Below are positions 7,098 to 63,943 of a stretch of DNA of 64,000 nt, one piece after another. The first letter of the stretch is position 1, and each line of letters starts with the position of its first letter. The DNA comes from Chiloscyllium plagiosum (taxonomy: Eukaryota): the NCBI RefSeq assembly GCF_004010195.1, contig NC_057749.1:19488661-19552660 (forward strand). Reading direction: 5' to 3'. Both the position numbers and the translations under genes were made by a program. The notes below the pieces were generated by a model. That model had not been told where the DNA came from and made no database searches. It was given only the letters and a program-made list of their open reading frames with translations.

Positions 7098-7676
7098 CTA
7101 ATACAGGAGTTGGGAGGTCATGTTGCGGCTGTACAGGACATTGGTTAGGCCGTTGTTGGAATATTGCGTGCAATTCTGGTCTCCTTCCTATCACAAAGAT
7201 GTTGTGAAACATGAAAGGGTTCAGAAAGGATTTACAAGGATGTTGCCAGGGTTGGAGGATTTGAGCTAAAGGGGGAGGCTGAATAGGCTGGGGCTGTTTT
7301 CCTTGGAGCGTTGGTGGCTGAAGGGAGACCTTATAGAGGTTTACAAAATTATGAGGGGCATGGATAGGATAAATAGACAAAGTCTTTTCCCTGGGGTCGG
7401 GGAGGCCAGAACTAGAGGGCATAGGTTTAGGGTGAGAGGGGAAAGATATAAAAGAGACCTAAGGGGCAACTTTTTCATGCAGAGGGTGGTACATGTATGG
7501 AATGAGCTGCCAGAGGGTGTGGTGGAGGCATCTGGATGGGTATACGAATAGGAAGGGTTTGGAGGGATATGGGCCGGGTGCTGCCAGGTGGGACTAGATT
7601 GGGTTGGGATATCTGGTCGGCATGGACGGGTTGGACCGAAGGGTCTGTTTCCATGCTGTACATCTCTATGACTCTA
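7098..7676 (+). mobile_element. CR1-clade LINE (HER1-like) 3' fragment, inverted relative to 5768-6718
   Basis: LKGDLIEVYKIMRGMDR...RTRGHRFRVRG...NFFMQRVVHVWNELP; tail GTACATCTCTATGACTCTA. Confidence 0.93.
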
Positions 7677-13401: not shown

Positions 13402-13635
13402 AGATGTGGAGGTGCCGGTGTTGGACTGGAGTAAATAAAGTTAAAATCACACAACACCAGGTTATAGCTGAAAATGTGTTACTGGAACAGCGCAGCAGGT
13501 CAGGCAGCATCCAGGGAACAGGAGAATCGACGTTTCGGGCATAAGCCCTTCAACACCAGGTTATAGTCCAACAGGTTTATTTGGAAGCTTTTGGAGCAGG
13601 ACGATAACCTCGTGTTGTGTGATTTTTAATTTTGA
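13402..13635. mobile_element. Penelope-derived family C fragment containing a family A fragment (13468-13550)
   Basis: Family C motif TCACACAACACCAGGTTATAGTCCAACAGG is split by the insert; 16 bp direct repeat CAACACCAGGTTATAG at 13452-13467 and 13551-13566. Confidence 0.75.
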
Positions 13636-13991
13636 AAGGACAGCGAATACACAGGAACATCACATGCAAGTTTCTCTCCAAGCCTCACACCACCCTGATG
13701 TGGAACTACATTGCTGTTCCCTCAATGTCACTGATTCAAAACTCTCCTCCTGGATGAAGGGTGAAAAGTTCCTACTGGCACTGCAGATGTTCCTACATCC
13801 TAAGGACTGCAGTAGTTCAAGAAGGCTGCTCACCACTATCTTCGAAATGGAAATTAGGAAAGGGCAGTAAATTTTGGCCTAGCATACCTTCAACTGATTA
13901 AAAGCAAGCCATGGGATCTTTTGCATCCAAATGTGCGAACAAGGGTTTTAAATTAAGCATTGTATCTGCAAGTCAGTACAGTCCCACAGTA

Positions 13992-14202
13992 GGCGGAAGT
14001 GGGTACTGCAGATGCTGGAGGTCAGAGTCAAGATTAGGGTGGTGCTGGAAAAGCACAGCAGGTCAGGCAGCACCCGAACAGCAGGAAAAATTTTAAAAAA
14101 AAAAAACGACATTTCGGGTAAAAGCCCTTTATCAGGAATTCGAGTTTTCCTGCTCTTCGGGTGCTGCCTGACCTGCTGTGCTTTTCCAGCACCACTAATT
14201 TG
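13992..14202. mobile_element. Penelope-derived family A inverted dimer
   Basis: CTGCAGATGCTGGAG...GGTCAGGCAGCA followed by its reverse complement; flanked by ACAGTC(C/A)CACAGTA at 13978-13991 and 14203-14216. Confidence 0.75.
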
Positions 14203-14783: not shown

Positions 14784-14997
14784 TTCTAGGAGAAAGTGAG
14801 AACTGCAGATGCTGGAGATCAGAGCTGAAAATTTGTTGCTGGAAAAGCGCAGGTCAGGCAGCATCCAAGGAGCAGGAGAATCGACGTTTTGGGCATGAGC
14901 CCTTCTTCCTGAAGAAGGGCTCATGCCCGAAACGTCGATTCTCCTGCTCCTTGGATGCTGCCTGACCTGTTGCGCTTTTCCAGCAACGCATTTTCAG
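14784..14997. mobile_element. Penelope-derived family A palindromic element
   Basis: Near-perfect inverted arms centred at ~14908; 16 bp direct repeat CACAGCTCATTTAATC at 14768-14783 and 14998-15013. Confidence 0.85.
14905..14940 (+). ncRNA. Putative minimal hammerhead ribozyme (PLE type)
   Basis: CTGAAGA-A-GGGC-TCAT-GCCC-GAAA-CGTC; stem I weak because it sits at the inversion junction. Confidence 0.5.
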
Positions 14998-16279
14998 CAC
15001 AGCTCATTTAATCACAACCTCAACTCCACCCTCCTGACTGTCCCCATAAATTTCCTGACTAGCTCTGAATCAAAAATTTAATTCAGCTTTCAATAAGTGC
15101 TCCTCGGATGCTGCCTGACCTGCTGTGCTTTTCCAGCGCCACACTCTCGACAGCCTCCACACTGTTCTCTGGATAAGAGAATTCCAGATTATCAACTCAG
15201 AAAAAAAAGTCATCCTCATTTCAATCTTAAATGAGAAGTCCCTTAGTTCTGGATTCTGTTCTGAGGTCTTGAAACAGCCTTCTCAGCATCTGCCCTGCCA
15301 TTCAAGAGTGAATGTTTCAAGGTCACCTCCCATTCTACTCAATGCCAATGGGTATAGATCTAACCTTCTTTCAAACGATCACCCCTTCACCCAGGAATCA
15401 GTCAGCACACAGTGAGCACACACAATATTGAAACACAACCAGACCTGTTAAAGGCCAAATGCTGATATAAATAAACCCACACGCAAGTGTGCTGTCTCCC
15501 AAGTGAATGACACACTTCAATTCCATCACATCTAACCTACTTCAAAAATACAGAACAACCTGCAGCCGATGTCTAAACTTTGAGACAAAACTGCAGTTTA
15601 TTTGTTTCATGAGTAGATTTACTTCCAGACATCCAAACAGCCCCAAATGTCAACCTAGAAAGTAGGCTGATGAATCACCCAGTGCAAGGGCTATGAATTT
15701 TCACTTGAAAGTGCCAAAGTGTAGTAAATTCTTCTGTCTGTTTGGAAGTGCAAGTAAAAACAATAGGGAGATGGTTTGATCAACCGATACATGTTTACAG
15801 TTGAAACTATGTTTAGGCTGCGACAAACATCAATATACATTGTGTAGCTGTAACGTAAGAACTATAGTGGGAACAACGTGAGTAACTGAAGTGCCATAAT
15901 GATACAAAAAGCTCATCCCACAAATTGGCAGATTTTTCAACTAGCCTATGAATGAGTCATATGAAAAAACCTTCAGCCCCTACTAAAAGCACAAAGAACT
16001 GACTGGGTTAATGCAAATACCATGAAATCTGGTAATAGTTGTATCTAATAATACTTCCTCCTCAGCAATTATGTTACAAGGTAGTTACGGTTAAATTGAG
16101 AAGCAGCATCTCAACTTGCATAAATTATTAAACTGTTCATTACCATTAGCTTTCTCATCATCAGGTAGTTTTGTGTAAATCTGTACCTTATGCAGCAAAT
16201 CACAATAATAAGCATTTATATTGTACTCTTTTATGTGAAGAAAAATGACAAGGTACTTCACAAGTAGACAAGAAAGCAA

Positions 16280-17490: not shown

Positions 17491-18605
17491 AGACAGTTAG
17501 GAAGAGAGACTAGAGTGGGAAACACTGATTAAAGGAGGATTGAAAGGTTTAAACAAAATGGAAGAATGGAAGAGCAAGGAATTTTCGGCTAACAGAATGA
17601 AGTGCCAGGCATTGTACATTTTCCAGTTAAATAAAAACTTGGGATAACTGTTTGCTGATGTATTCCCCACAGCAATGGCTCAAAGTCCAATTACCTACTA
17701 ATTAGTACCCTTTTCTCATGCACTGTTATTCTCGAATTCTTAGGCATTCTTGGGATCTGTCCTGATGAGTGCAAAATTGAAAGCTTCAATGATGAGTCTC
17801 TTCTTTCAGCAATAAGCATGCGAGTTATACAGATGAAGATGTTTATGGTCAACATATAACACATTATTATCCAGTAACTTGCTTCAAATGCATAACAAAA
17901 TAAATGAATGAATGAACTACTTTGATTACAAATTATTTCTTCAAAATCTATATGCAGGTTCCCAGGACAGATATGGTGATGGAAGATTATTTTTATGTCC
18001 TGAAGTGCTCTTACGCACAATTGAACAATTATATTTCCCATCACTAAATCACCTCTTCACCACCACCAATAAATCACCAGCATTTTCCAATGATTATTTT
18101 AAATGCAAAGCCCACTAAGGGCAATACAGACCATCAAAAGGTGAGGGAGAGGGACTGAATCAATGGGAGAGATGGTAGATTACAATTACCCTTGTTTGAC
18201 AAATCCAATATCAAGCCAAAGTAGGCTCATAGTAATTGCTGGCCAGCCAGTGACAACCAACACTCAACTAGGTAAATTTTATGAAGAGGATCTCTCCACT
18301 CATTGTTAGACAACCATAGAAGTTAATGCCCTCATTTGTTCTGAGGGAGGGTTATTGGGCCCAAAACATTAATTCTACTTTCTCTACACAGATGCTGCCT
18401 CACCTGGTAAGTTTTTCCAACAATTTCTGTTTTCTGCTGTTCTTTTGGTTTTTTGCCCCAATAGATTTGATGGCCTTAGCTGTACAAGTACAGAAACTCA
18501 TGAATGCAATGGTTACACAGTCAACATTAGACTAGCTTTTTATTCCAAATTTATATTGAATGCAAATTTCCACCACTTGAAAATGACTGTTTCCCATGGC
18601 AATTT

Positions 18606-20210: not shown

Positions 20211-20336
20211 CATTCAGAACTTATGCTCGAAAAGTTGACTCTCCTGCTCCTCGGATACTGCCTGACCTGTTGTGCTTTTCCAGCACCACACTTTTCGACT
20301 CTGATCTCCAGCATCTGCAGACCTCAATTTCTCCAT
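20211..20336 (+). mobile_element. Penelope-derived family A fragment
   Basis: CTCCTGCTCCTCGGATACTGCCTGACCTG...CTCCAGCATCTGCAG; flanked by AGACT(A/G)AAATCT. Confidence 0.75.
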
Positions 20337-20798: not shown

Positions 20799-21989
20799 TA
20801 TTTTTCATTTTTGCCATGACAGCTCTGACAAAGAATAGATTTGCTGCCAGAACTTTGATGCATGCAAAGTGTGATTAATCTTTTTGGGAACCAGTCCTGT
20901 CAGACAGCATATTCACTTTAACAACATTATGACGACAAAATACTTTAAGATCTAATAATCTACCACCAGTGCTGAATCATGGTGTGACTCTGATCATAAC
21001 AGCCTCAAACAACCAATGATAATCCATACCTACAATAAGAAACAGCATCTAATACAATTCTATAACAAATCTCATACACAGATGCTTCTGACTGTGAAAC
21101 ATCATCATACAGTTTAGCTAATCTAATGATTACAAGATAAATATAGAGAGCTATTCACCTCCATCTAGCCCCTCTATGTAGAATGAGTGCACCCAACTGC
21201 TTTATGGCAGCGAGTTTCGATGAAAAGTATGAGAGTAGGGAGACCACTAACATTAAGTTAATGTCACTATCAACTTTTTTTTTTTAAAACAGTTTTTCAA
21301 AACACTTGATGCCAACAGATGCTGGCATTTTGATTTAGGAATTACATACCATCAAGCTAGCAGTGCTGAGAGAGGTCTTTTTCAAATCTCCAAGCTCACA
21401 AAAAAAGTGTAGTGAAAATAAAAGAGTTGCCTGGGTGTGAAGCACTCATATACACCGTTTTTTTAAAAAAAACTTGGGCCATTTTGGAAATGATATCCTT
21501 TTACAATGCTGGTTTTCACACAAAGCCATTTAAGACAGTGAAGAATAAGTTACTCCACTGTTTATAACAGCAAATATTTATGCAGCACTTCTAACATAAC
21601 AAAGCATTCTAGGTTGTACAAGTGCCACATAAGGAGATATTAAGCCAGATGACCAAAACCTCAGTCCACGAGGTAGAGTTGAAACATGTTTTAAAAGAGG
21701 AAAGAGAGGTTGAGATAGGAGCGTACGCAATTGAAGATATGACCACCAGTAACTAACTTGAGAGCCCTTTCATAGATCTACAACAGTATGATGGACTCAA
21801 GTGAAGCAATTAAAATTTGTGATGCCCAAGAGGAGCGAATCAGGTAAATGCAAATTTCCCAGAGGTTACGGGGGTGGAGAAGATTATGGAGATAGAGGGG
21901 GCTGAGACTATGGCGGTCTTGAAAGCAAGAATGTGAACTTGAAAATCAATACTGGGAGCCAATGTTGGTCAACAAATACATAATACCGC

Positions 21990-22125
21990 GAAAGTGAGGA
22001 CTGCAGATGCTGGAGCTTAGAGTCAAGATTAGAGTGGTGCTGGAAAGCACAGCAGATCAGGCAGCATCCAAGAAGCAGGGGAAAAAAAAAAAATCAACAT
22101 TTCGGGCAGGAGCCTTTCATCAGGA
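21990..22125 (-). mobile_element. Penelope-derived family A fragment
   Basis: AAAGTGAGGACTGCAGATGCTGGAG...TTCATCAGG; AATACATAATA duplicated on both flanks. Confidence 0.78.
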
Positions 22126-22709
22126 ATACATAATAACCTCTGTCCTAGCTTCATTCAGGAGGTTGAGCATTTCTTTTTCGGCTCAGTAAGTAGTGCTGGA
22201 CTCAGAGCTCAAGATACCTCAAACAACAGCACATCATGACTTTCACACCAACTGGTAGCACATTCCAGGATACAACTTACTCTTACTGTTGCTATACTGT
22301 CAGCTTACCTGTTGAGTTCAGTGTACATGGGGCTCTCTCAAGTTTACCTTCGGAGCATTTGGATGGGGTAGGTGGCAAGGCAGGTTGAGCTCTCTTCATT
22401 GGAAGTTTAGAAGAATGAGAGATAAATAATTGAAACAGAGGATCTTAAGAGTTCTTGACAGGGTCAGAGAAACCAGAGAAAAGAGCGTTAGTTTAAAAAC
22501 GTGTCTCCCACTTAAGATAAATATAGAGAATTTAATTTTCTTCATGAATCTTTGAAACTCTCTTCCCCAGAGAAGGGCTGAAGCTTGTACCATTGAATAC
22601 TTTTAAAGGCAGGAGTAAAGAGATTCTTGACTAACAAGGGAGTCCATCAGAAAGTCAGGTTGTGGCCACAATCAGATCAGCCATGTCGTAGAGAGGCCAA
22701 AAGCTTTGT

Positions 22710-22918: not shown

Positions 22919-22952
22919 TTTCGGTCATTAAACTTGGCTAAAGAATATATAA

Positions 22953-23047
22953 TTCCTGATGAAAGGCTTATGCCCGAAACAGCGATTCTCCAGCTCCTTG
23001 GATGCTGCCTGACCTGCTGTGCTTTTCCAGCACCATACTCTCAACTC
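22953..23047 (+). mobile_element. Penelope-derived family A fragment starting at the hammerhead core
   Basis: TTCCTGATGAAAGGCTTATGCCCGAAAC...; AAG(A/G)ATATAT on both flanks. Confidence 0.75.
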
Positions 23048-23326
23048 GAAAGGATATATGGCAACACATAATACCTCAACATAAATGTAATGGTAACATT
23101 TAATAATTTAATTTTATAATACACACCCTAACTACAATAAGCATATTTGACAATGTCCTACATGATAATGGGATACTCTTAAAGCATAGACAAAGTGTCC
23201 ATTTTGAGCAAGGGCTGCATAGTCTAAGCAGAGTTTGAAAGAGCACTTGAAGAAATCAGAATTATAAAACCTCTGACACCGATCCATATAGTCAATGGCC
23301 CCCACAGAAGGTGTGGAATCACACAT

Positions 23327-24683: not shown

Positions 24684-24983
24684 TAGAGTTACAGATGAAC
24701 AGCATGGAAACAGACCCTCAGTCCAACATGTCCACGCCAACCAGATATTCTAACCTAATCTAGTCCCATTTGTCAGCATTTGAGCCAAATCCCTCTAAAT
24801 CCTTCCTATTCATTCACCAATCCAGATGCCTTTTAAATGTTGCCATTGCACCAGCCTCCATCACTTCCTCTGGCAGCTCATTCCATACACACACACCACC
24901 CTTTACGTGAAAAAGTTGCTCCTTATGTCCCTTTTAAATCTTTGCTCTCGCACCCTAAACGTAGGTCTTCTAGTTCTGGACTT
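24684..24983 (-). mobile_element. CR1 (HER1-like) 3' end
   Basis: Homologous to 5768-6060. Confidence 0.88.
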
Positions 24984-26264: not shown

Positions 26265-27560
26265 TTTATTCTACACTTCTCCCAAAGGATTGTGAATCTG
26301 TGGAATTCCCTTCCCAGTGAATCAGATAAGACTCCCTTGTGAATGTTTTTAAGATGTGGAAGTGCTGGTGTTGGACTTGGGTGGTCAAAGTCAAAAATCA
26401 CATGACACCGAGTTATAGTCCAACAGGTTGATTTGAAACCGCAAGCTTTTGGAGCCCCCACTCCTTCCTCAGGCAGCTAGACAGAGAGAATGCATCAGAC
26501 AAAATTTATAGTAAAAGATCAAAGGGTCATACAACCAAAATAGCTTCAGGTTTTAGCAGAATAAAAGGTAAGAATCACAACACCAGGTTATAGTCAAACA
26601 GGTTCATGTGGAAGTACAAGCTTTCGGAGCACTGCTCCTTTGTCAGGTAGCTAGTGGTTAAAATGTGATGCTGGAAAAGCACAGCAGGAATGCAGCATCA
26701 AAGGAGAAGGATAATCGACGTTTCGGGCAAAAGTCCTTCTTCAGGAATGAGGAGGGTGTGCCAAGCAGGCTAAGATAAAAGGTAGGGAGGAGGGACTTGG
26801 GGGAGGGGCGTTGGGAATGCGATAGGTGGAAGGAAGTTAAGGTAACCTCCTTCCACCTATCGCATTCCCAACGCACCTCCCCCAAGTCCCTCCTCCCTAC
26901 CTTTTATCTTAGCCTGCTTGGCACACCCTCCTCATTCCTGAAGAAGGGCTTATGCCCGAAACGTCGATTCTCCTTCTCCTTTGATGCTGCCTGACGTGCA
27001 ACACATTTTTAAGCTCTGATCTCCAGCATCTGCAGTCCTCACTTTCTCCTAGGTAGCTAGTGGGGCAGGATCAAAGGATTTATAGCGGGGGGGGGGGGGG
27101 GGGGGCAGCGGTGCATGTGCATGTACACATTTGTACATTTGAATTTGCAAATACATTCTGTTTTAATCAATCAAAACTTGCACCTCCATTCAAACTGATT
27201 AAAGATTTAATAGCCATTTAGGTTTGTTCAATACATTTGCCTAAGTTGTATAACCCTTTGATCTTTCACTGTAAATTCTTTGTCAGATGTATTCTCTCTC
27301 ACGAACTGCCTGAAGGAGAAGCAGGGACTCCGAAAGCTTGTGGTTTTGAATCAATCTGCTGGACTCTATCCTGGTGTTAAGGAATTTTATTTTTAAGGCA
27401 AAGATAGATAGATCTTTGAACCGTAAATAATTAAGGGTTATGGCAAGCTGGCAGTTAAGTGGATCGGAGTCCATGAAAATATCAGCCATGATCTTATTGA
27501 ATATCGGAACAGGCTCGAGGGGCCAGATGGCCTACTCCTGCTCCTATTTGTTAAGTTCTT
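26265..27560 (+). mobile_element. Old CR1 3' fragment split by a Penelope family C composite (26354-27389) that contains a family A inverted dimer (26658-27050)
   Basis: CR1 sequence resumes across TTTTTAAG duplicated at 26346-26353 and 27390-27397; inner AGGTAGCTAGTGG duplicated at 26645-26657 and 27051-27063. Confidence 0.8.
26934..26969 (+). ncRNA. Putative minimal hammerhead ribozyme (PLE family A); partner copy on minus strand at ~26714-26748
   Basis: ATTC-CTGAAGA-A-GGGC-TTAT-GCCC-GAAA-CGTC-GATT. Confidence 0.6.
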
Positions 27561-28558: not shown

Positions 28559-29503
28559 CGTCATAGATTCATACAGATATATAGCAGGGAAACTGAGCCT
28601 TCAGTCCAACTCATCCATGCTGACCAGATATCCCAACCTAATCTAGTCCCACCTGCCAGCATCCGGCCATATCCCTCAAAATCCTTCCTCTTCATATACC
28701 CATCCAGATGCCTTTTAAATGTTATAATTGTACCAGCCTCCACCACTTCCTCAGCAGCTCATTCCATACACATACCACCCTGAGTGAAAAAATTGCCCCT
28801 TAGATCTCTTTTATATCTTTCTCCTCTCAAACTAAACCTATGCCCTCTAGTTCTGGACTCCCCCACCCCAGGGAAAAGACTTTGCCTATTTACCCTATCC
28901 ATGCCCCTCATAATTTTAGAAACCTCTAAGGTCACACCTCAGCCTCCGAAGCTCCAGGGAAAACAACCCTAGCCTCTCCCGATAGCACAAATCCTCCAAC
29001 CCTGGCAACGTCCTTGTAAATCTTATCTGAATTCTTTCAAGTTTCACAACATCCTTGCGATAGGAAGGAGACCAGAATTGCACGCAATATTCCAACAGTG
29101 GCCGAACCAATATCCTGTACAGTCGCAACATGACCTCCCACCTCCTGTACTCAATACTCTGACCAATAAAGGAAAGCATACCAAACACCGCCTTCACTAT
29201 CCTATCTACCTGTGACTCCACTTTCAAGGAGCTATGAACCTGCGCTCCAAGGTCTCTTTGTTCAGCAACACTCTCCAGGACCTTGCCATTAAGTGTATAA
29301 ATCCTGCTAAGATTTGCTTTCCCAAAATGCAGCACCTCGCGTTTATCTAACTTAAACTCCACCTGCCACTTCTCAACCCATTGGTCCACCTGATCAAAAT
29401 CCCGTTGTAATCTGAGGTAACCTTTTTCGCTGTCCACTACACCTCCAATTTTGGTGTCATCTGCAACCTTACGTTAAACTATACCTCCTATGTTCACATC
29501 CAA
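28559..29503 (-). mobile_element. CR1-clade LINE (HER1-like) 3' fragment
   Basis: ORF 28916..29437 (KWQVEFKLDK; LVRPLLEYCVQFWSPSYRKD). Confidence 0.93.
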
Positions 29504-34749: not shown

Positions 34750-36455
34750 CCAAGAACAGTCATCTTCCAAGAATCCTTAGATTCAGGAATGTTCCAGAGG
34801 ATTGGGAAACTGGCAATATAAGACATCTTTATTCAAAAAGGGAGATTAAAAAAAAGGTAGCTATTTGCCAGTCAGTTTAATATCCGTCACTGGAAAAACG
34901 TTAGAGACTATTTTAAAGAGTGTAGCTACATGGCGTTTAAATAATCAAGCAGAGTCAGCATGACTTCATGAATGGGAAATCATGTCTGACAAACTTATGG
35001 CAATCTTTTTTTTGAGGTAGCAAGCAGGAGAACCAGTGGACGTAATATATTTGGATTTCCAAAAGGCACTTGACAAGATATCAAAATAAGGCCAATTAAT
35101 AAGACATGAGCCCATAATATCAGTGGTAATATATTACCATGAGGAGAGAATTGGCTAACTTTTAGATAGTTGGGATAAAAAGGGGATTCTCAGGATGGCA
35201 ACACACAACTAATGAAGTACCAGCAGGATCAATGCTGGGCCACAATTATTTACAATTCATAATGACTTGGATTAGGAAAGTGAACATAATCATTACCAAG
35301 TTGACAGATAGTGAAAATAGATGGGAAGTCAATTGGCAAGGACAACACAAAGAATCTTGAGGGATATAAACAGATTAAGTGAGTTGGTAAAAACTTTGCA
35401 GATGGAAATCTCATGTGGCAAAATGTGAAGTGTTGCAGTTTGGTTGGAAGAACAAAAGAGCTGACTATTATTTAAATGGAGAAATAGTGCAGAAAACTGC
35501 AACAGAACAATCTGGGGTCTGCATAAGAAATTCACAAAAAACGTAGTGTGTAAGTTCAGCAGTTAATAGCAAAGGCAAATGGAATGTTGGCCTCTATTTC
35601 AAGGAAATGGGAGTATAAAAATACAGTAGTCTTGCTAAAACTATACAAAGCACGAGTCAGATCACACCTGGAATACTATGAATAGTTTAGGTCCTTTTAT
35701 CTGGAGGAAGATATACTTGCAGAGGTGATGGTGCAGAGTAGTTGCACTAGGTTGATCCTGGGTGTGAAGGGGCTGTCCTTTAAGGAGAGGTTTAGTAAAT
35801 TAGGAACACACAATTCTAGAGAAATTCAACAGGTTTGTATTCTGTGGAGAGAGAAAAACGTTAACATTTCAAGTTCAGTTCTGAAGAAGCGTCATTACAG
35901 TCAGGAAACACTGCTTCTGGCTTTCTCTCCGTAGGTGCTACCAGATCTGTTGAGCTTCTCCAGAATTCTCTGTTTGCAGTTTTGATTTCCCTACCAGAGG
36001 ATGGATGTTGTGGAGGGCGTGCAACAAAGGTTTACCATTATGGGATGGCAGGACTGATGGATGAAGGAAGACTGAATCCACTAGGTAGGGGTCTGTGTCT
36101 GTGCGTGATAGAAATCTATAAACTTCTAACAGGAATACACAATGAAACATCTTCAACTGGGAAGTCCAGTACCAGGGCTCACTGTTTAAGGATACAGGGT
36201 AAGCCATTTATGACTGACATAAAGAGAAATATCCTCACCCAGGCTGTGGAATTCTGTGCCACTGAAAGCAGTTGAGTCCAAAACATTGAATATTTTCAAG
36301 GAACTAAACATAGATTGTACGGCTAAACTACTCAAAGGGTATGAGGAGAAAGCAGAAACAGGGTACAGAGTTGGATAATCAAACAGGATCCTAGTGAATG
36401 GCAAGGCAGACTCAAAGGGCCAAATGGCGTACCTCTACTCCTAGGTTTTATGCTC
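34750..36455 (+). mobile_element. Old CR1 remnants (two pieces) with a Penelope family B palindrome at ~35805-35985
   Basis: VDVIYLDFQKALD remnant near 35035; RLILGVKGLSFKERFSKLG; CR1 3' UTR at 36380-36455. Confidence 0.75.
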
Positions 36456-37169: not shown

Positions 37170-37268
37170 AGCTGAAAATGTGTTGCTGGAAAAGCGCAGC
37201 AGGTCAGGCAGCATCCAGGGAACAGGAGAATCGACGTTTCGGGCATAAGCCCTTCCTGAAGAAGCCCT
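37170..37268 (-). mobile_element. Penelope-derived family A stub abutting a CR1 5' truncation
   Basis: GCTGAAAATGTGTTGCTGGAAAAGCGCAGC...CCCTTC followed by a short inverted CTGAAGAAG. Confidence 0.8.
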
Positions 37269-38693: not shown

Positions 38694-38905
38694 ATAAAGA
38701 ACTGCAGATGCTGGAAATCTGAAGCAAAAGCAGAAATTGTTTTGAGAAACTCAGCAGGTCTGGCAGCACCTGTGGAGAGAAAGTGGAGTTAATGTTTCAG
38801 ATCCAGAACTGAAGAAGGTTCATGAGACCAGAAATGTTGACTTGGCTTTTTCTCCACAGATGCTGCCACACCTGCTGAGTTTCTCCAGGAATTTCTCATT
38901 TAGGT
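38694..38905. mobile_element. Penelope-derived family B palindrome
   Basis: Arms AACTGCAGATGCTGG...GCAGCACCTGTGGAGAG and CTCCACAGATGCTGCC, centre CTGAAGAAGG; TCAAAGACA(T/A)TGAA at 38680-38693 and 38906-38919. Confidence 0.75.
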
Positions 38906-48500: not shown

Positions 48501-49051
48501 GGCGATATTTGTTTCTATCTGTTTTATTTAATATTTAAATTTCCTGTGCTTAACCTGAACATGCTATGTATGAATTTGGAAGTGTCAAAGACCCCATCTG
48601 CTCTTTGAACTGTTTCTTTGTGTGAAAATACTCTTCTAATTCCTTTTGGTCTGTCTCTTTTCTGAAGACAGTGACTCAAACAGGGTATAATTCACTTCGT
48701 ATTAGCAATCTTTCACGTTTTTGCCCTTATTCATTTTAGAACAAGGTGAAATATTAGTGAAAGTGTTGAAGTTTTTGAAGCAGAAAACAGAGAATGCTCT
48801 CCATCAGAGTCAAAAATATACAATTAAGGATTTGGGAAAAAAGGGCTCATCCTACTAGGTTGACCATCGTTCCAATGCTTGCTACTTTGCTCTCTAGAAG
48901 AGATCTCTGTAGCTTCTCAGCTCTTACCAAATGGCCAAAATACAGAGGTTTCTTTTGTGGGTGTCACTTTTTAAGAATTCTTTTTACTCTTGCAATTTCC
49001 AGTACCTCTGCAATATTTTACGGTCATGCCAGTGAAGAGCTGATATTCAGA

Positions 49052-49237
49052 AAAACCAAAGAACTGTAGATGCTGAAAATCAGAAACAAAAGCAAAATGT
49101 TGGAAAGATTCAGCAGATCTGGCAGTGTCTGTGGAGAGAAGGCAGAGGCAACGTTTCAGGTCCAGGGACCCTCCTTCAGAATGGTTCTGAAGAAGGGTCG
49201 TTGGAGTCAAAATGTTAACTCTGTTTTCTCTCCACAA
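49052..49237. mobile_element. Penelope-derived family B palindrome
   Basis: Centre CCTTCAGAATGGTTCTGAAGAAGGGTC; inverted arms. Confidence 0.75.
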
Positions 49238-49668: not shown

Positions 49669-49893
49669 ATAAAAACTGAAAGAACTGCAGATACTGTAAA
49701 TCAGAAAAAAAACCAGAAGGTGCTGGAAAAGCTGAGCAGATCTGGTTGCACCTGTGCAGAGAAATCGGGCTTAACATTTCAGGTTCGGTGACCCTTCCTC
49801 CGAACTGAGGAAAGGTCACCAGACCCAAAACATTAAGCCTAATTTCTCTTCACAGGTGCGGCCAGATCTGCTCAGCTTTTCCAGCAACCTCTA
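49669..49893. mobile_element. Penelope-derived family B palindrome
   Basis: 12 bp direct repeat TTAATGATTGAG at 49657-49668 and 49894-49905; inverted arms centred at ~49803. Confidence 0.8.
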
Positions 49894-51095: not shown

Positions 51096-51711
51096 TGCCA
51101 TGACCCCACATAATTCTGAATCAAAAACATGTGGATGGCACTTGACAATTGAAACAAAGCTACTTTTTATTAACCAATTAGATGAGAATTTGAATGTCAC
51201 AAAGGGCCATTATTCATACTTTGAAGACTATTCTATGTTCACTGCTCCAGTGTTTTGACATTAGATTATCTTCCAAAGTCTTCTGTTTTGAACTTGCCAG
51301 TTAATATCCTCAGAATGGCTCACCATTCACAATCTCCACAGTCAGATTTTTAAGGACTACTTCAATCGATTCAGAACAAGACAAAGCCTTTCAATCTCTG
51401 GAGTGTGCTCTGCCAATCGGTGGCTGTGACTGTACCTGAATTCCATTTACTCGTTTTCTTTCGTGAATACAAAAATCTAACAAAAAATTGATCCATCTCA
51501 GTTTTTGCTTCATACCAAATCTCAGCATTTTGGGACAGAAAGCTCCTGATTTCCACCACCTTTTATAAGGAGCTTCCTGAATGGCCTTGTTGTAATTTTA
51601 ATTTTATTCTCTCTTGTTTTGGATTCCTCCCCCTACCCCGATCTGTAGATTGACTAACAAAGCAAAAAAAAACAGTGATCTTAAAAGCCTCCTGATCCTT
51701 AAAGCATACAG

Positions 51712-51982
51712 ATGAAAGTGAGTACTGCAGATGCTGGAGATTAGAGTCGAGAGAGTGGTGCTGGAAAGGCACAGCAGGTCAGGCAGCATCCGAGGAGCAG
51801 GAAAATCGATGTTTCGAGCAGAAGCCCTTCATCTGGATTTCCTGCTGTGCTCTTCCAGCACTGCACTCTCGACTTAATGTACAAGTCTAATCTCCTGAAG
51901 AAGGGCCTGTGCCCGAAACGTCGAATCTCCTGTTCCCTGGATGCTGCCTGACCTGCTGTGCTGTTCCAGCATTAAAATTTTA
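51712..51982. mobile_element. Two adjacent Penelope family A insertions (51712-51873 inverted; 51894-51982 on +)
   Basis: Second insert is flanked by 13 bp ACAAGTCTAATCT (51881-51893, 51983-51995) and begins at CCTGAAGAAGGGC. Confidence 0.8.
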
Positions 51983-53639: not shown

Positions 53640-55495
53640 AAGAACAAAGAACAAACTACAGTATGGCACACTGAACAAGCCCTTCAGCCGCCAAGCCTGC
53701 ACTGACACAGGAAACCTTTCTAAACTAAAAACCTTTTGCCTCTAAGCTGTCCATATTCCTTTATTCCCTGTCTATTCATGTATCGGTTAAGATGCATCTT
53801 AAATGCTGTTATTATATTTACTTCTACCACTTTGGCAGTTACCACCCTCTGTGTAAAATAAAGGCTTTCCTCCAACATCTCCTTTAAACTTACCCTCTTT
53901 TACCTTAAACCTATGTCCCTTAGTAGAGACATTTCTTACCTGACAAAAAGATTTGACTATTCGTGCCATTCATAATTTTGTAAATTTCTATCAAGTCCCC
54001 TCAACCTCCAACGTTCAAATGAAAACAAAGTTTGTCTAATTTTTCTTTATAAGCAATACCAGGCAACATCTGGCATACCCTGTGGCAACAAGAACTGTGC
54101 TCAATATTCCAAATGTGGCCGATCTAAAGTTCTGTACGGTTGAAACATGACTTGCCAATTTTTATCCCCTTTGCCAGGGGATCGATGAAAGCAAGCATGC
54201 TATATGCCTTCTTGACTGCCTTATCCACTTGTGTTGCCACTTTCAGGGAACTGTGGACCTGCCTAGAACCCTCTGTATATTGATGTTTCTAATGGTCCTG
54301 TCATTTACTGTCTACTTCCCTTCTTCCAAAACGCATCCTGTTGCATTTGTCTGGATCAAACTCCATCTGCCATTTCTTCACCCAAGTCTCCAGCCTATCT
54401 ATATGCTGCTATATCCTCTGGCAATCCTTCCCACTACCTGCAGCTCCCCCAATCTTAGTGCACAATACAAACTTACTAATCAGACCAACTACATTCTCTT
54501 CCAAATCATATATATATATATATAAAACAATATGGGTCCCAGCACTGATCCCTGCAGAACATCACTGGTCACTGATCTCCAGTCAGAAAAACACCCTTCT
54601 ACCACAACACGTCTATGATCCAGTCTGTTCTGTATCCATTTTGGTTCACCGGTATCTCCATGATGTTCAACGTTCTCACCACACCCAGAGATCAACACTT
54701 AGTACCATGCATCACCAAACCCTGCAGCCTTCTGGACTTAATATTGAATTCAATAATTTTAGGGCTTGAGTACCTTTTCCCCATGGTTTCCCCACCCCAC
54801 ACACCAGGCCTTGTCATCACATGTGCTGCTAGCACACATTGCCTATTGTGTTACTGCTACTAATAGTCCCCATTAACAGCTATTCATTCCCTCAGACTGA
54901 CCTTTAACCACTCTTTTGTCTGTCCAACTATGTCTCTTTCTCTTTGGACTCTATTGCCACTTATCGTTTACTCTTCCCCTCCCTCCACCCCATCTTCTGC
55001 CCTTTTCATAGCTACCATGAGTTCTGAAGAAGGGTCACTAGACCTGAAACATCCACAGATGCTGACAGACCTGCTGAGATTTTCCAGCAATTTCTGTTTT
55101 TGTTTCTGTGTCCATTTTACCAGCTCACTGCAGAGCCTGTCACCTGACATTCTGTATTAGCCTGCCATGAGAGATCTTGTCAAAGGCCTTCCTAAATTCC
55201 ATGTAGACAACATCTCCCCTACCCTGACCAATCATCTTTGTCACTTCCTCAAAAAATTCAATCAAGTTTGAGACATGACCTCCACCATCCAAAGCCGTAC
55301 TGCCTATTGCTAATATGTCTTTTTTTTTAACAAATGTGAGTAATTCCTATCCAGAAGAAACTTTTCCAATAATTTTCCTACCAGTGATGCAGACCTCACC
55401 AGTTTGTAATTTCCAAGATTATCCATGTTGCCTTCTTAAACAAACAACAATATTAGCTATTCTCCAGTCCTCTGGGACCTTCGCTGTGACCAAGG
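53640..55495 (-). mobile_element. CR1 fragment interrupted by a Penelope family B 3' fragment (54643-55103, +)
   Basis: VVVEGCFSDWRSVTSDVLQGSVLGPILF; insert encodes TLQPSGLNIEFNNFRA (PLE C-terminus) and is flanked by TTCTGT(A/G)TCCATTTT. Confidence 0.82.
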
Positions 55496-56074
55496 AGAGG
55501 CAACATCAACATCAAAATTTCAATGGGAACAGTGACCATAATTATGTAAGTTTAAGTATCTCCAAGCAGTTGTGCCCAAACTATGTATACCAGTTTCTGC
55601 TTAGTATTGTCATTGTCAGCCTTCTCTCGATTTAGTACTCCCACCAGGCGACTGTTCTTATCATCCGTAAAGTTACTTAAACTTACATAATGATGTTGCC
55701 TCTCCTTGTCCTTCCTGAAACATATGACAAACCTCTCTTTAAGTTTTGATTAAATCCTACCAGGGTTGGGTCAGACCACATTAGAAGTTCTGCATTAAGC
55801 TTTGAGGATTGCAATTCAGGAAGGATATATTCGCAGTGAAGGAGATGCTAAATTATGAGTTCTGGTTACATAGATATGAACATACAAGTTAGGAGTAGTT
55901 CGACGCCTCTTGACTCCTCAAGCCTGCTCCAACATTCAGTGACAATATGGATGGTCTGATTATGTCCCTGCCCACACTACTAAACTTTCTTATCTCCTGC
56001 TCAAACGTAACAAATGCCTGAGTGTATTGGAGATTAAATGGTAATCAGGGTGTTTAAAAATATTAATGCACCCG

Positions 56075-56762
56075 AGTGTTGCTGAACAAAGAGACCTTGA
56101 AGTGCAGGTTCATAGCTCCTTGAAAGTGGAGTTGCAGGTAGATACGATAGTGAAGAGGGCGTTATGTATGCTTTCCTTTAATAGAGTATTGAGTACAGTA
56201 GTTGGGAGGACATGTTGCAGCTGTACAGGACATTGGTTCGGCCACTGTTGGAATATTGTGTGCAATTCTGGTCTCCTTCCTATCAGAAGGATGTTGTGAA
56301 ACTTGAAAGGTTTCAGAAAAGAGCAATAGGGAGAGGTTGAATAGGCTGGTGCTGTTTTCTCTGGAGTGTCAGAGGCTGAGTGGTGACCTTATAGAGGTTT
56401 ATAAAATCATGAGGGGCATGGATAGGATAAATAGACAAGTCTCTTCCCTGGGGTGGGGTAGTCCAGAACTGGAGGGCATAGGTTTAGGGTGAGAGGGGTA
56501 AGATATAAAAGAGACTTAAGGGGCAACTTTTTCACGCAGAGGGTGGTGTGTGTATGGAATGAGTTGCCAGAGAAAGTGGTGGAGGCTAGTATAATTGCAA
56601 CATTTAAAATGCATCTGGATGGGTATATGAATAGGAAGGGTTTGAAGGGATGTGGGCCGGGTGCTGGCAGGTGGGACTAAATTGGGTTGGGATATCTGGT
56701 CGGCATGGACAAGTTGGACCGAAGGGTCTGTTTCTGTGCTGTACATCTCTATGACTCTATGA
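56075..56762 (+). mobile_element. CR1 (HER1-like) 3' fragment
   Basis: VAEQRDLEVQVHSSLKVE; NFFTQRVVCVWNELP; (CTATGACT)n tail. Confidence 0.92.
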
Positions 56763-57727: not shown

Positions 57728-58515
57728 TCTGACTAAATATCATGTGGAACCCAGTTCAAAGGCAAACACAATCACCACCCTCTCAGAACAACCCAAAATA
57801 GACAACAAACCGGGCCTTGTGATTATGATAATGTCACTGGTCTATAATCCAGAGGCACACTCTAATGCTCTGATCCAATCAAAAACATTGTTGAAATTTA
57901 AATAAATTAGTAAATTATGGAACAATAATAAGGCACAACAATCGTGACCACAAAAAGTACCATCGATTGTTATAAAAATCCATGTGGATAACTAGTGCCC
58001 TTTAGGGAGCAAAAATCAGTCTTTCTTACCTGGTCCTGTCTCCATGAGACTTCAGGTCCTCCACATCCAGGAAATCCACTGAGTCACAAATTGTTCTGGG
58101 ATTGGCTCATTATAAGATGGTACTGGAATTGGATGTGAAGGATGCCACAGAGGCAGGGTTGATAGTTAATGAGGAGATGTTGGCTAGGTCTGGTGAGAAT
58201 TTGCTAGGCCTTGCAGTAGAAATCTTTCCAAAAGCAATGCAGCCCTTTGTCATTTCAGCTTGTGGATAAACTCCAGTTATGCCATTCATACCAAGGGGCT
58301 GGAATGCATATGAAGCCCTTCAAGTCATATGTGTGCCAGAGAATGTTTGACATGAGTCACGTGATTATATTTTAAATATAATAGTACATACTAAATGTAA
58401 TGAGGCGCCTCAGGTGCCATACATTTGACTGAAAGATCTGGTTGTATTGAGGTCACGAACCGAGGCTGACCGAGCCCAGAAATATCAAGACCCTCCAACA
58501 TGCAATTCCATCCAA
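57728..58515 (+). repeat. Copy 1 of an ~800 bp dispersed duplication (copy 2 at 62958-63943)
   Basis: Colinear shared blocks, e.g. AATATCATGTGG..CCCAGTTCAAAGG, TACCAAGGGGCTGGAATG, CCTCAGGTGCCATACATT, CTCCAACATGCAATTC. Confidence 0.85.
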
Positions 58516-59389
58516 TCCTATTCCCAAAGCTGTCCAATTTAGACCATTTTCTTTTCAACTGCAAAAGCGTTTTTATTCAGAAATGTCAAAAGCTTGTGGA
58601 TTTAAAGGTCTTGATAGTTCCACTGAGTCCAAATCACATACACTCATTAACAGTTTTAACAATCTCAAATAACATTTGAACGTTCTCAATATGGAACATG
58701 ACCTCTTCTAAAAGGATACTTGAACCTCTCCATAAAAACACTCAGTCTCTACACATAACCCCAGTGGTGGGGGCTATGTTCAGGCCAGGGATTTTGAGAA
58801 CTGTGGCTCCAGTGTCACTTCTCTGTGGGTACTAGATCAGTTCTTAATTTTAAATCTGAGATAGTTAACTTTTGTTAAGCAAAGGTATTAAGGAATATGG
58901 GCTAAACGCAGATATATGGAGTTAGGCCACAGATCAGCCATGATCTCACTGAATGGTGAAACAGACTCTAGGGGCTGCACAGCCCACTCCTGTTCCTATG
59001 TTCCTAAGCCAGTGACCCAGAGAGCCATGAGATTGATTGCTTTTGTACAAACTAAGCACTGCTGACATCAGAACAACAAATGCTGAAAATGTTCAGTAAG
59101 TTATGGAGTCATAGAGTCATTACAGCAGAGGAGGAGAACATCTGGCCATTGTGTCCATACCAGATTGATCTGGCAGCATTTGTGGATAGAGAAATGTACT
59201 TAACATTTCAGAACTTATTAATGGATATTTGGTGGGTTTGCATGTGAAGGGATCTGGAGCAATGGTGGGTAAGTGGAGATGAGGTATGGATCCGTCATGA
59301 TCTAATTGAATGATGGAGAAGATCTGAAAGATAGAAAGGCCTCCTGTTATTCCTACATTCCAAATAGATCTGTTTGTCCTCTCTGCTTG

Positions 59390-59807
59390 CTGGAGAAAGT
59401 GAGGTCTGCAGATGCTGGAGATCAAAGTTGAAACTTTATTGCTGGAACAGCACAGCAGGTCAGGCAGCATCCAGGGAACAGGAGATTCGACGTTTCGGGC
59501 ACAGGCCCTTCTTCAGGAATGAGCAGAGAGTGTTCAGCAGGAGAAGATAAAAGGTAGGGAGGAGGGACTTGGAGGAGGGGAGTTGGAAATGTGATAGGTG
59601 GAAAGAGGTCAAGGTGAGGGTGATAGGTCGGAGTAGGATGGAGGCGGAGAGGTCAAGAAGAAGACTGCAGGTCAGGAAGGCGGTGCCGGGCTGGAGGGAT
59701 CCGGCTGAGACAAGGTGGGGGGAGGGGGGATGAAGAAACTGGTGAAGTCCAAGTTCATCCCCTGCGGTTGGAGGGGATGACCTGCTGTGCTGTTCCAGCA
59801 ATAAAGT
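59390..59807 (-). mobile_element. Penelope-like element 3' fragment (family A) with short inversion
   Basis: Minus strand PLQPQGMNLDFTSF (end of the GIY-YIG ORF), followed by the hammerhead-bearing terminal region; 13 bp TCCTCTCTGCTTG at 59377-59389 and 59808-59820. Confidence 0.85.
59485..59520 (-). ncRNA. Putative minimal hammerhead ribozyme, best-preserved copy
   Basis: ATTC-CTGAAGA-A-GGGC-CTGT-GCCC-GAAA-CGTC-GAAT: 4 bp stem I, 4 bp stem II, palindromic ACGT in place of stem III, GUC site. Confidence 0.65.
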
Positions 59808-60310
59808 TCCTCTCTGCTTGATACTTTCTCAGTAAATCCATAAGCATTGGAAATCTGAATTAAGTGCAAAAAATTCCAGCAACACTTTCTCAGCATCTGC
59901 AGAGAAAGAGGATTTCAAATTGATTAGTTTTCTCCAGAATCACGACTTCTACTCCCCGTTGTAGGGCTGCCTGAGCTAAAGATTGTTCCCAAAATTTTCT
60001 GTTTTAGTTTCAGCATTCACGGCCGAGTGGAGTGTAATTGAAGTATGGGAGCTGAGAATGAGAACATTGAAATGAATGTGGTAGCACTGGATGTGGCATT
60101 CTGCCAACTGTCACAGACAACACTAGACCATGAGACCAAACAGTCAACTTAGTAGTGCCCAAAGAAACAGAACAACAGTCTGGAAAGTTGCAGTTTGGGT
60201 AAGGTATTAGGAAATGGCTATTGTTTTTGGAATGATACTTTGGTCCAAGCTTTTAGAAGAGGATGCAAAGCAGAAGATAGGAATTTTACTGAGCTTGTCA
60301 GCCCTTAAGG

Positions 60311-60439
60311 TTCCTGATGAAGGGCTTTTACCTGAAACGTTGATTCTCCTGCTCCTCGGATGCTGCCTGACTGGCTGTGCTTTTCCAGCAGTACACACTC
60401 GACTCTAATCTCCAGCATCTGCAGTCCTCACTTTCACCT
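60311..60439 (+). mobile_element. Penelope family A fragment starting at the hammerhead core
   Basis: TTCCTGATGAAGGGCTTTTACCTGAAACGTTG...CAGTCCTCACTTTC. Confidence 0.8.
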
Positions 60440-61544
60440 AGCCTTTAAAATAGACTTGCTCATCAAGTACAGATTGGCAGGTTTACGATCTGTATCTCAC
60501 AGACTGACCACAGTTGTCACTGTCAGCATTTAAACAGCATTGGCAATCTCGACAGTAACTGTTACACCACCACGTTTTGTACAACATTTAAGGATGTGAT
60601 GCTTTCAGTTATATTTAGTAGCCTAAGATCAAATGTGTCGAACGAAATAAAATAATTCCATTTAAACGTAATAATTTCCAGACCTCAGAACACCCCAAAT
60701 TACTTTATTCTCATTGAAAAAGTTGAAGTTGTGTCATTGTTGCTCTGCAGAGAAATATAAGTCAGTAAAAGAAAAAAAAACAACTTTAGTTTTCTCAAGG
60801 TTAACATACAAACGGTGATAATTAGTGGTTGTAGATGGCGAGTCCCTGTTGCTGTGTGTGTTTTGGTTGTGGAATCCATCAATTTTGTGGTTCCTCTGGT
60901 TGTTTAAAAAAATTCCTGTTCTGTTTCCTCTTTTGGTTCTAGTTCTTTTTTGGTGATTCCCCTCCAAAGTACCTTTGTGATTTCCTGTTGTCCAAGTTTT
61001 GTAATTTTAAAAAACATTGTTTCAATTTTGTTTTTCTATTTTGCCACATTTTATGCCAGATTAATGTCTTGCTATGTTTTCTATCTGGGCTGGAGTTTAA
61101 ATCATGGTTTTTGGACCTTTTTAAAAAGCCATTCATTAATTGAGCAGCCTTAGATGGGTAACATTTATTGTCCCTCCCTAATTGCCCATGAATCAGCTGC
61201 CTTCTTGAACTGCAGTCCTTGAGGTGTAGGGACACCCAGAGTGCTATTAGGGCGTTCTATGATTTTGAGCTACGAGCAGTGGTGTATTTCCAGGTCAAGA
61301 TGATTTGGGATTTGGAGTGAAATCTGCTAGAGGGAATGGAACCTGGAGAGTAAATATTGAACGTGATGGATGGCCTGCCGAACGAGAGAGCTGCTTTTTC
61401 CAGGGCATTGCTGAATTTCATTTCATATTGTTGGAGCTGCACTCAGCCAAGCGAGTGGGGTGTAGCCCATCACACCCTTGACTTGGGTCATGTGGTATGA
61501 CTTGGGGAGTCAGCTCTTAAAGAATAAACAAGAAAGATTCCATC

Positions 61545-62003
61545 ACACTCACTGTTACAAGGATGTTACCGAGTCTGGAAGGTCTGAGTTAGAATGAGAG
61601 GCTGGATAGGCTGGGACTTAGTTCCCCTGGAGCATAGGAGGCTGAGGTGAATTTTATAGAGGTTTATGAAGTAATGAGCATAGGTAAGGTGAAAAGCCAA
61701 TGTCTTTTCCCCAGACTAGGGGATTCCAAAACTATAGGGCATAGGTTAAGGTGAGAGGGGAAAGATTTAAAAGAGACCTGAGGGGCACCTTTTTCACACA
61801 GAGGGTGGTGTGTCAGAGGAAGTGGTAGAGGTTTGTACAATTACAATATTTAAAAGACATTTGGACAGGTACATGGATAGGAATGGTTTAGAGGGATATG
61901 GGCCACATTTCGGTAAATGGGACTAGTCAGCTTAGGAAACATGGTCAACATGGACAAGTTGGGCCGAAGGGCTTGTTTCTGTGCTATATGCCTCTATGAC
62001 TCC
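61545..62003 (+). mobile_element. CR1 3' fragment
   Basis: Homologous to 7235-7676. Confidence 0.88.
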
Positions 62004-62164
62004 ATCTCTGAATCTAGGACTCTTCTGAGTGAACTACATTGAGCAGGAAATCCTCTGATGTATTTACTAACCCACCCAGCTGATGGACAGTGCTTGGAAG
62101 CTGAGTATCTTCAATGCTTTTTAAATGTCACTCTTGTGATATTTCAGGTATCTATGATCATTGT

Positions 62165-62957: not shown

Positions 62958-63943
62958 ACTGACTGAATATCATGTGGGAGCCCAGTTCAAAGGGAGTCAC
63001 AACCAGCATTCTCTCAAGACAACTAAAGGTGGATGACAAAACGGGCCTTGTGATGATGGCTTAGTGATAATGTCACTTGTCTATAATCCAGAGGCCCACT
63101 CTGGGGAATAGCTGCTAATATCCCACCATGATAGCTGATGCAATTTAAAATAAATTAATAACATGGGGAATTATAATAAGTCTCAATAATGGTGACCATG
63201 AAAGTATCATCGATTATTATGAAAATCCAATTGGACCAGTAATTCCCTTTAGGGAAGGAAAATTTATCTTCAGGTCCTCTATAGAATTGGGATATCTGCT
63301 AAGTCATGAGTTGTTGCGGGAATGGTGCAATCAGACATGTGAATGTCACAGAGGTGGGATTGATAGTTATGAAGAAAGTTCGCTAAGATGTGGTGAGACA
63401 ACTTACTAGGCCTTGCAGCAGAACTCTCTCCAAAAACAATGCAACTCTGACATAGCTAAAAGGCTTAAGATTCAGCCTTATGTCATTTCAGCTTTGTGGA
63501 TGAACTCCACTCAAACACAATCGAAGCCATTTATACCAAGGGGCTGGAATGAATGTAAAACCCCTCAAGTCATATGAGCCAGCGAATGTTTGACATGAAC
63601 CATGTGCTTATTTTTTAAATATAATGGTACATGCTAAATGTAGTAAGGCACCTCAGGTGCCATACATTAGACTGAATGATCTGCTTCCAGTATTGTTGGA
63701 CTCGGGTGTACAAAGTTAAATATCACACAACATCAGGTTATGGTCCAACAGGTTTAACTGGAAGCACTAGCTTTCGGAGTGTCGCTCCTTCATCAGATGG
63801 TTGTGTACTCCACAACCACCTGATAAAGCTAGTACTTCCAATTAAACCTGTTGTGTGATTTTTAACTTGGTTCCAGTAAGGTCACAAACTGAGGCTGACT
63901 GTGCCCAGAAACATCAAGACACTCCAACATGCAATTCTGTCCA
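62958..63943 (+). repeat. Copy 2 of the ~800 bp duplication, carrying a Penelope family C palindrome at 63693-63870
   Basis: Colinear with 57728-58515; insert flanked by TTCCAGTA at 63685-63692 and 63871-63878. Confidence 0.85.
63765..63799 (-). ncRNA. Putative minimal hammerhead ribozyme (PLE family C)
   Basis: CAT-CTGATGA-A-GGAG-CGACA-CTCC-GAAA-GCTA-GTG: palindromic AGCT stem III, CUA site. Confidence 0.55.

Follow-up and report, generated by a model that had tools for sequence, protein, structure and literature searches.

Short repeats carrying hammerhead-like motifs are scattered through the 64,000-nucleotide stretch of the Chiloscyllium plagiosum genome analysed here (hereafter the window), and they are very probably dead-on-arrival 3' ends, each made up of a pseudo-LTR with an optional tail, of endonuclease-bearing Penelope-like elements (PLEs) with a minimal type I hammerhead ribozyme. 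Motifs of this kind have already been described; what is new here is a set of additional families and the position of the 5' edge of their copies. In an active element, the hammerhead would most likely act as a slow, probably protein-assisted double hammerhead, in which the ACGU or AGCU palindromes of two copies pair, stem I strands are swapped and cuts fall after GUC, GUU, CUA or CUU. We favour a double hammerhead because two nucleotides are too few for a monomer to close stem III, and its working would be family-specific through stem I. The genomic copies themselves would derive from uncleaved RNA by target-primed reverse transcription, which would have begun downstream of the hammerhead, at either of two sites separated by about 36 nt, and would often have added a second arm by fold-back. 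The uncut motifs found in these copies agree with the account given for another PLE, in which unprocessed RNA is the main template (PMC11167929).

Minimal hammerhead motifs in three repeat families

Positions within copies are given as offsets from C3 of CUGANGA, which is set to 0. In family A the motif reads CTGAAGA-A-GGGC-N4-GCCC-GAAA-CGTC, with C3 at 59516(-), 26938(+), 14909(+) and 51895(+), and in family C it reads CTGATGA-A-GGAG-N5-CTCC-GAAA-GCTA, with C3 at 63796(-); these five motifs are intact. The sequences quoted in a first-pass annotation of this DNA were all found where it had placed them. The copy flagged there, at 59485..59520 on the minus strand, was recognised as an intact family A minimal type I hammerhead by its sequence, by a descriptor and in a hand-registered table. 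It comprises the 5' strand of stem I (59520-59517), CUGAAGA with the extra A (59516-59509), stem II (59508-59505/59500-59497), GAAA (59496-59493), CGUC (59492-59489) and the 3' strand of stem I (59488-59485), with a predicted cut between 59489 and 59488. In its predicted fold, stem II has a pairing probability of 0.99 and stem I has 4 bp; across the predicted folds of all five intact motifs, the probability of stem II is 0.95-1.0 and that of the first pair of stem I 0.01-0.61.

The descriptor, which combines the core, a stem II of at least 3 bp, GAAA, a 2-nt palindrome and UH, matched six sites in the window, whereas 300 dinucleotide shuffles averaged 0.027 matches and never gave more than one; the sixth match, beyond the five intact motifs, lies at 60314(+). 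The stricter table, in which 26 arms were registered by hand (indels put two rows out of register), returned exactly the five motifs that had been called intact (A 4/13, B 0/8, C 1/5), so that family B is degenerate throughout, as had been claimed, and the hammerheads of 21/26 arms are broken. UH at the cut site, the CUGANGA core and GAAA are all present in 5/26 arms. G10.1-C11.1 is G-C in 5/5 intact motifs, the stem III strands are self-complementary (ACGU in A and B, AGCU in C) and helix III is absent; the description of these sequences as minimal type I hammerheads with a palindromic stem III is thus borne out by both the descriptor and the table. Stem II differs among the families yet pairs in each, again as described (GGGC/GCCC, GGGUC/GACCC and GGAG/CUCC). 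The extra base between A9 and G10.1, which is A in 25 of 26 rows, had been taken as a departure from the canonical core; it is instead the rule, because the published consensus CUGANGAH includes, after position 9 and before 10.1, a conserved extra nucleotide (PMC4209133). The cut-site triplets named earlier were GUC, GUU and CUA; CUU has to be added, as it stands in place of CUA in a second family C subfamily (26646, 26472, 27310).

A merely chance resemblance to a hammerhead might be argued from the shortness of the motif and from the search with Rfam hammerhead models that the annotation had proposed, since a scan of the window at E up to 5 returned 29 matches, none of them a hammerhead. However, the six descriptor matches far exceed those in the shuffled sequence, pairing is retained with different stems in three families and in a family from outside the window (see below), and the motif sits within a pseudo-LTR; the probability that chance accounts for it is negligible. 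The microRNA matches in the same scan correspond to the inverted family A pair at 26.7-27.0 kb and were rejected.

The closing pairs of stem I also differ by family while retaining pairing (UC/GA, UU/AA and AC/GU), and helix I is 2-4 bp long across the families. One stem I position in the second family C subfamily is compensated (A-U, G-C, G-U); within A or B, no compensatory change was seen in the 26-arm table, where changes break pairs. The majority form of family A has a stem I of 2 bp plus a U-U mismatch, and the 4-bp stem I of the flagged copy depends on a minority letter at 59486: the other, mismatching base accounts for about 75% of RNA reads and for most of the contig depth in both of the organisms whose contig depth was summed. 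In co-folding, the lowest-energy predicted homodimers were not double hammerheads, the program being unable to represent the core, and predicted folds place head-to-head copies onto their own antisense arm. No intact copy has an intact partner of its own family on the same strand within 10 kb. Inserted copies decay and are probably inert, since each stands alone or pairs with its own antisense arm.

The closest described relatives are the minimal hammerheads (min-HHRs) of metazoan PLE pseudo-LTRs, which lack helix III, have a palindromic 15.2-16.2 and G10.1-C11.1, and occur as several families per genome, mostly solo, with some opposite-strand pairs 100-700 bp apart; their dimers are cleaved weakly and their monomers not at all (PMC4209133). 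The window motifs resemble them in being type I and in the extra nucleotide, G10.1-C11.1, the palindrome, the short helix I and the solo truncated copies, and the layout of family A comes near that of the listed Nematostella (2) motif (PMC4209133). They differ from the min-HHRs of that paper in their short stem II (4-5 bp), and its 40-species list (Fig. S3) contains no cartilaginous fish (PMC4209133). Five intact motifs in 64 kb, if this held genome-wide, would exceed the highest numbers given there (about 4,000 in the coelacanth and 9,000 in Xenopus; PMC4209133).

Insertion structure and the link to Penelope-like elements

Family A comprises 13 insertions with 19 arms in the window, or 2,232 bp (3.5% of its length). 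The copies listed in the first-pass annotation exist, but the listing was an undercount, since there are 13 family A insertions, about 7 family B loci and about 5 of family C. The insertion that holds the flagged motif (59390..59807, minus strand) has a long, tailed arm at 59777-59390 (offsets -261 to +126), a short inverted arm at 59778-59807 (offsets +54 to +83) and a perfect 13-bp target duplication (59377-59389 and 59808-59820). Head-to-head pairs of the same family are found at 26658..27050, within a family C copy (arms from -99 and -93 that are 97% complementary, a 13-bp target duplication, an intact motif at 26938(+) and a stem II mismatch at 26744(-)); at 14784..14997 (joined inside the hammerhead, intact at 14909(+), with a 16-bp duplication and a tail on the left arm alone); at 13992..14202 (arm starts at -4 and +26, a degenerate motif and a 14-bp duplication with one mismatch); and at 51710..51878, an old pair with arms from about -2/-4 and +57. 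The solo stub at 51894..51982(+) runs from -1 to about +87 and has an intact motif (51895) and a 13-bp duplication. Further stubs lie at 13468..13550(-), from +5/+6, with a 16-bp duplication and inside a family C pair; at 15093..15151(+), from about +36 and without a hammerhead; at 20211..20336(+), from about -5, tailed, with its core partly deleted and a 12-bp duplication with one mismatch; at 21986..22127(-), tailed and degenerate, from -4 (3 nt being common to its 11-bp duplication); at 22951..23048(+), degenerate, from -4 and without a tail; and at 60309..60441(+), tailed, from -3, with a near-intact motif (60314) that has one stem II mismatch. At 37170..37266, a minus-strand stub from +5/+7 is joined to a plus-strand mini-arm (offsets -3 to +8). 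The junction of this 12-bp second arm (37254-37266) fits a fold-back of the cDNA end on the hammerhead's UUC/GAA self-complement. In two other family A arms (14096-14106 and 22083-22093), a run of T on the element strand immediately follows the predicted cut site, at a place occupied in the family consensus by a short stretch of pyrimidines; this may reflect slippage or be a trait common to a subfamily.

The longest family B copy (54719..55110, plus strand) contains the C-terminus of a PLE protein (TLQPSGLNIEFNNFRA-stop, 54719-54769), a pyrimidine-rich 3' region and a degenerate hammerhead at 55024. Degenerate head-to-head pairs of this family, both joined at the hammerhead, occupy 38694..38905, with a 14-bp duplication containing one mismatch, and 49047..49235, where the duplication is not above the null. 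A third degenerate pair, at 49669..49893, has a perfect 12-bp duplication and was missing from the earlier listing; an old degenerate pair lies at 35815..35980, and a degenerate stub at 18335..18435(+) starts at the hammerhead edge. In family C, both arms of the head-to-head pair at 63693..63867 start from -9; it holds the intact motif at 63796(-), which has a 3-bp stem I, and its 11-bp duplication, with one mismatch, scores no higher than the null maximum, which it equals. The second family C subfamily is represented by 26365..26535(-), with a degenerate motif at 26472 and TATAAAT at -38; by 26564..26657(-), with a degenerate motif at 26646 and TATAAA at -32, the upstream part of which continues at 27051, past the family A insertion; and by 27228..27395(+), with a degenerate motif at 27310. 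A head-to-head remnant at 13405..13640 has no hammerhead core and is split by a family A stub. The 3' ends of family C fall into two classes about 18-20 nt apart. Two family A insertions lie inside family C copies (26564-27395 and 13405-13640; duplications of 13 and 16 bp), and the interval at 26.3-27.4 kb contains a cluster of four PLE pieces; a preference for inserting into existing PLE ends is possible.

Across the families, target duplications measure 11-16 bp and score above the null maximum (a score of 8 among 300 random position pairs) at 10/22 loci (A 8/13, B 2/7, C 0/2), and head-to-head inverted pairs occur in A, B and C alike. Of the 19 family A arms, 10 end at about +83 to +92 and 8 at +121 to +129, and the mini-arm ends at +8. 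The longer end, which corresponds to a tail of about 36 bp, is found on exactly one arm in 5/5 full family A pairs. In 4/5 family A pairs an arm finds its best match in its own partner, which points to one template per pair.

A connection to PLE proteins comes from the C-terminus. We built a profile from 11 outside PLE RT/GIY-YIG proteins ending in T[LM]xPxG[LM]Nxx[FY], with the window peptides excluded. Among 127,936 positions in the window, it ranked 54719-54751 (family B) first and 59744-59776 (family A) second; shuffled windows reached the score of the B site in 0/300 cases and that of the A site in 1/300, compared with 129 for the third-ranked site. The family A remnant of an RT/GIY-YIG protein C-terminus (PLQPQGMNLDF...) lies at 59735..59776(-). 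The top two ranks indicate that in A and B the hammerhead follows the end of a PLE protein at a distance of 230-270 nt, and both peptides named in the earlier annotation are present, at 59735-59773(-) and 54719-54760(+). The PLE link that had been drawn from them accordingly stands for A and B (by the C-terminal profile, duplications and tails), whereas family C has the insertion structure but no peptide. What connects A and B to PLE proteins is an 11-residue motif. The window contains no full-length element; a scan of 64 frames (of 88 listed) turned up neither an RT nor a GIY-YIG domain, and tblastn of outside PLE proteins against the window gave nothing significant (best E 0.04). Homologues of the A peptide numbered 0 of 8 candidates, a phmmer search of 1.84 billion proteins with it returned 0, and the B peptide had 0 matches in PDB. 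Another repeat, present in two copies (58150-58400 and 63380-63600), has a translation that loosely resembles a PLE C-terminus and gave no profile score (58275-58304 and 63520-63549).

The downstream segments of families A and B are 75-88% identical over 30-40 nt. A and B are related families, because this segment, the ACGU palindrome and the C-terminal peptide are all common to both. The statement that at least three lineages had spread here therefore holds in that three families exist, with the qualification that A and B are related and that family C comes without protein evidence in the window.

Outside the window, a pattern scan of metagenome contigs returned six loci with the same core, which otherwise bear no similarity to families A-C; the same scan of viral contigs gave 0 matches. 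One of the six loci (L001) has a PLE frame upstream of the hammerhead. Here, on an animal-like contig, a decayed PLE with RT, cysteine linker and GIY-YIG (57-2400) is followed by the core about 560 nt past the end of the frame; the core and the stem II arms are those of family A, and stem I is GU/AC. More than 550 residues of this frame align to RT proteins and its last part was read as GIY-YIG, though word searches with the GIY-YIG piece matched 0 of 6, the RT piece had 0 matches in PDB, and Pfam gave nothing above cut-off on seven pieces.

These insertions share with endonuclease-positive PLEs their 5' truncation, head-to-head arms, tail, short duplications and an initiator-like motif (PMC3846280, PMC8557442); such elements have an inverted pseudo-LTR and a one-sided tail of 30-40 bp (PMC8557442, PMC3846280, PMC11167929). 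Unlike the copies described in the available passages of PMC3846280 and PMC8557442, those in the window are 85-130 bp long, with 5' ends clustered just before the hammerhead. The outside proteins that match the A and B C-terminus carry a cysteine motif before GIY-YIG, a trait of Neptune and Nematis (PMC8557442). With no RT or Zn-finger-like linker left in the window, the likeness to proteins that have this linker is confined to the C-terminal motif. Families A and B also resemble Poseidon of Anolis carolinensis, in which the hammerhead lies shortly upstream of two RT start sites, the template is uncleaved and no RNA-seq ends fall at the cut site (PMC11167929). As far as can be told from the sequences, Poseidon belongs to a different PLE clade from A and B. 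Its cleavage is protein-assisted, and cleavage is not needed in vitro; the Poseidon ribozyme needs the protein (PMC11167929). What the hammerhead does in the PLE cycle has been called unclear (PMC8557442), and further related papers are PMC6765202, PMC2377424 and PMC6155905. Our literature search, which reached few subscription journals, found none that deals specifically with PLE hammerheads in sharks or with 5' junctions lying at the hammerhead edge.

The 5' edge of the copies

The 19 family A arms start at +6, -4, +26, +5, -3, +36, -5, -4, -4, -99, -93, +7, -2, -2, +57, -1, -261, +54 and -3, the start of the 20211 arm having been read from its target duplication. Nine of the 13 insertions of family A include an arm that starts between -5 and -1 (with uniform nulls, p is about 1e-5 to 7e-9), and only 1/19 arms starts near the cut site. 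This suggests that copies beginning at the hammerhead edge are run-off copies of uncleaved RNA, made up to its 5' end. In its full form, which we judge to have about an even chance of being right, this reading takes the stubs as complete run-off copies of a transcript that starts in the upstream pseudo-LTR at -4 (families A and B) or about -9 (family C), with reverse transcription primed from within, at the tail sites that this 5' pseudo-LTR itself carries, giving products of 95-130 nt, and with an optional fold-back on UUC/GAA or UCAG/CUGA.

Several observations favour a transcript start at this edge. Among the 18 of 829 loose-end rows listed, the largest one upstream in RNA run X21 is at 59520, or -4 (194 reads), with diverse flanks (agreement 0.40); this row was listed for the RNA run alone. 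Depth upstream of 59520 falls to 18% in this run; subfamily differences at 59524-59543 contribute to the fall, and in X1 depth is back to 40-45% further upstream, both of which weaken the argument. The A at -4 is +1 of a match to the initiator BBCABW (background rate 0.017 per nt) in 3/3 family A arms with upstream sequence, as well as in the B copy at 35881, and the second family C subfamily has TATA-like boxes at -32 to -40. The match of arms to their own partners in 4/5 pairs also fits run-off copying, as does the anole PLE, where reverse transcription begins at two internal positions and these delimit the tail (PMC11167929). Against this, the B copy at 55024 lacks an initiator at -4, the TATA-like box of family A is poor (TTTTATCT), the -9 start and the TATA boxes belong to different family C subfamilies (the first and the second, respectively), and some starts share 1-3 nt with the flank. 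In addition, the transcript of a D. virilis PLE starts about 120 nt upstream, and there the end of an intron abuts stem I (PMC4209133).

That intron, which terminates at stem I (PMC4209133), is also a point in favour of another origin of the edge, namely that a step following reverse transcription fixes it, or that RNA processing does so, through nicking at ATT (-4 to -2), a 3' splice site or stalling. The anole PLE endonuclease favours ATT in its own pseudo-LTR (PMC11167929), and family B has AG at -4/-3 behind a pyrimidine tract. Yet AG is missing from -6 to -4 in family A, as is ATT from the corresponding place in family B, the agreement of 0.40 among loose ends reveals no common upstream exon, and structure should halt reverse transcriptase at the 3' side of the hammerhead (about +30), where few arms begin. 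We regard this alternative as rather unlikely, at roughly half the weight we give to run-off copying.

Still less probable is that the short copies form an independent non-autonomous family, SINE-like or composed of retrozyme monomers, that spreads from short masters, possibly via circular RNA. Their fixed-looking 5' edge, short length and very high copy number would suit such a family, and animal non-LTR retrozymes, which carry type I hammerheads, derive from PLE pseudo-LTRs and are known in one chondrichthyan (bioRxiv 10.64898/2026.07.22.740005). Retrozymes, however, are tandem hammerhead units (bioRxiv 10.64898/2026.07.22.740005), whereas copies in the window are solo or head-to-head: no tandem units occur among the mapped copies, and there are no tandem arrays among the 13 family A insertions. 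Furthermore, 3/19 arms extend upstream, one of them into the protein C-terminus, the same edge recurs in several subfamilies and in family B, and the junctions lie away from the site of cleavage and ligation. Of nine retrozyme dimers tested, eight did not cleave (bioRxiv 10.64898/2026.07.22.740005).

Run-off copying can be taken one step further. It is conceivable, though we would put it somewhat below an even chance, that the PLE transcript begins at the first strand of stem I and that reverse transcriptase runs off its capped end, yielding several hundred thousand strong-stop-like copies, each 95-130 bp long, of the element's uncleaved ribozyme.

Reads, host context and copy number

In an RNA run of this species, 3,130 of 12,955,460 polyA reads match the family A stretch 59340-59830, and 93% of these continue into unlike flanks, as expected of passengers in host transcripts. 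No pile-up of read ends was listed at the cut site or anywhere else, a single fragmented single-cell polyA library being a weak test. A second RNA run (X22) contributed no matching reads. The first coding exon of SNX27 (PDZ domain) lies in a G+C-rich region at about 47250-46971(-), where 57/61 residues are identical to the solved SNX27 PDZ; as this exon is the first coding one, sequence beyond about 47250 lies upstream of SNX27. No further SNX27 exons were recognised in the 64 frames scanned, and intron 1 may be longer than 46 kb, or the scan may have passed over later exons that are too short for it. The presence of five intact copies and of family A sequence in polyA RNA could be read to mean that some copies are functional host ribozymes, for example cutting SNX27 pre-mRNA. 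This is very improbable: most of the matching reads run into unrelated flanks, the motifs at 26938 and 14909 lie downstream of SNX27 exon 1 but antisense to the gene and locked in hairpins, the other three intact copies lie upstream of the gene, and none has the same-strand family partner within 10 kb noted above.

The window also holds a larger dispersed repeat (about 986-1900, 5790-6694, 7102-7663, 24715-24982, 28561-29482, 56074-56762 and 61540-62020), which looks like LINE 3' ends. A weak U6 snRNA match inside a repeat (28961-29069, minus strand; 25.5 bits vs a cut-off of 44) is probably due to chance.

Summed contig depth over the family A core is 2-5 x 10^5 times that of the flank in two organisms; this ratio, which is not a copy number, is consistent in magnitude with the 13 insertions found in 64 kb. 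PLEs are reported to be absent from birds and mammals (bioRxiv 10.64898/2026.07.22.740005).

In summary, these data add three families to a class of hammerheads described in 2014. If the side points hold, the copy number would be perhaps 10^5 or more, compared with published highs near 10^4, and so many insertions would allow cut (+28 junction) and uncut (-4 junction) templates to be counted in vivo. If the PLE transcript does begin at the first strand of stem I, 5' junctions would reveal, from DNA alone, where transcription of each PLE family starts, and the hammerhead would not, in vivo, generate the template's 5' end.
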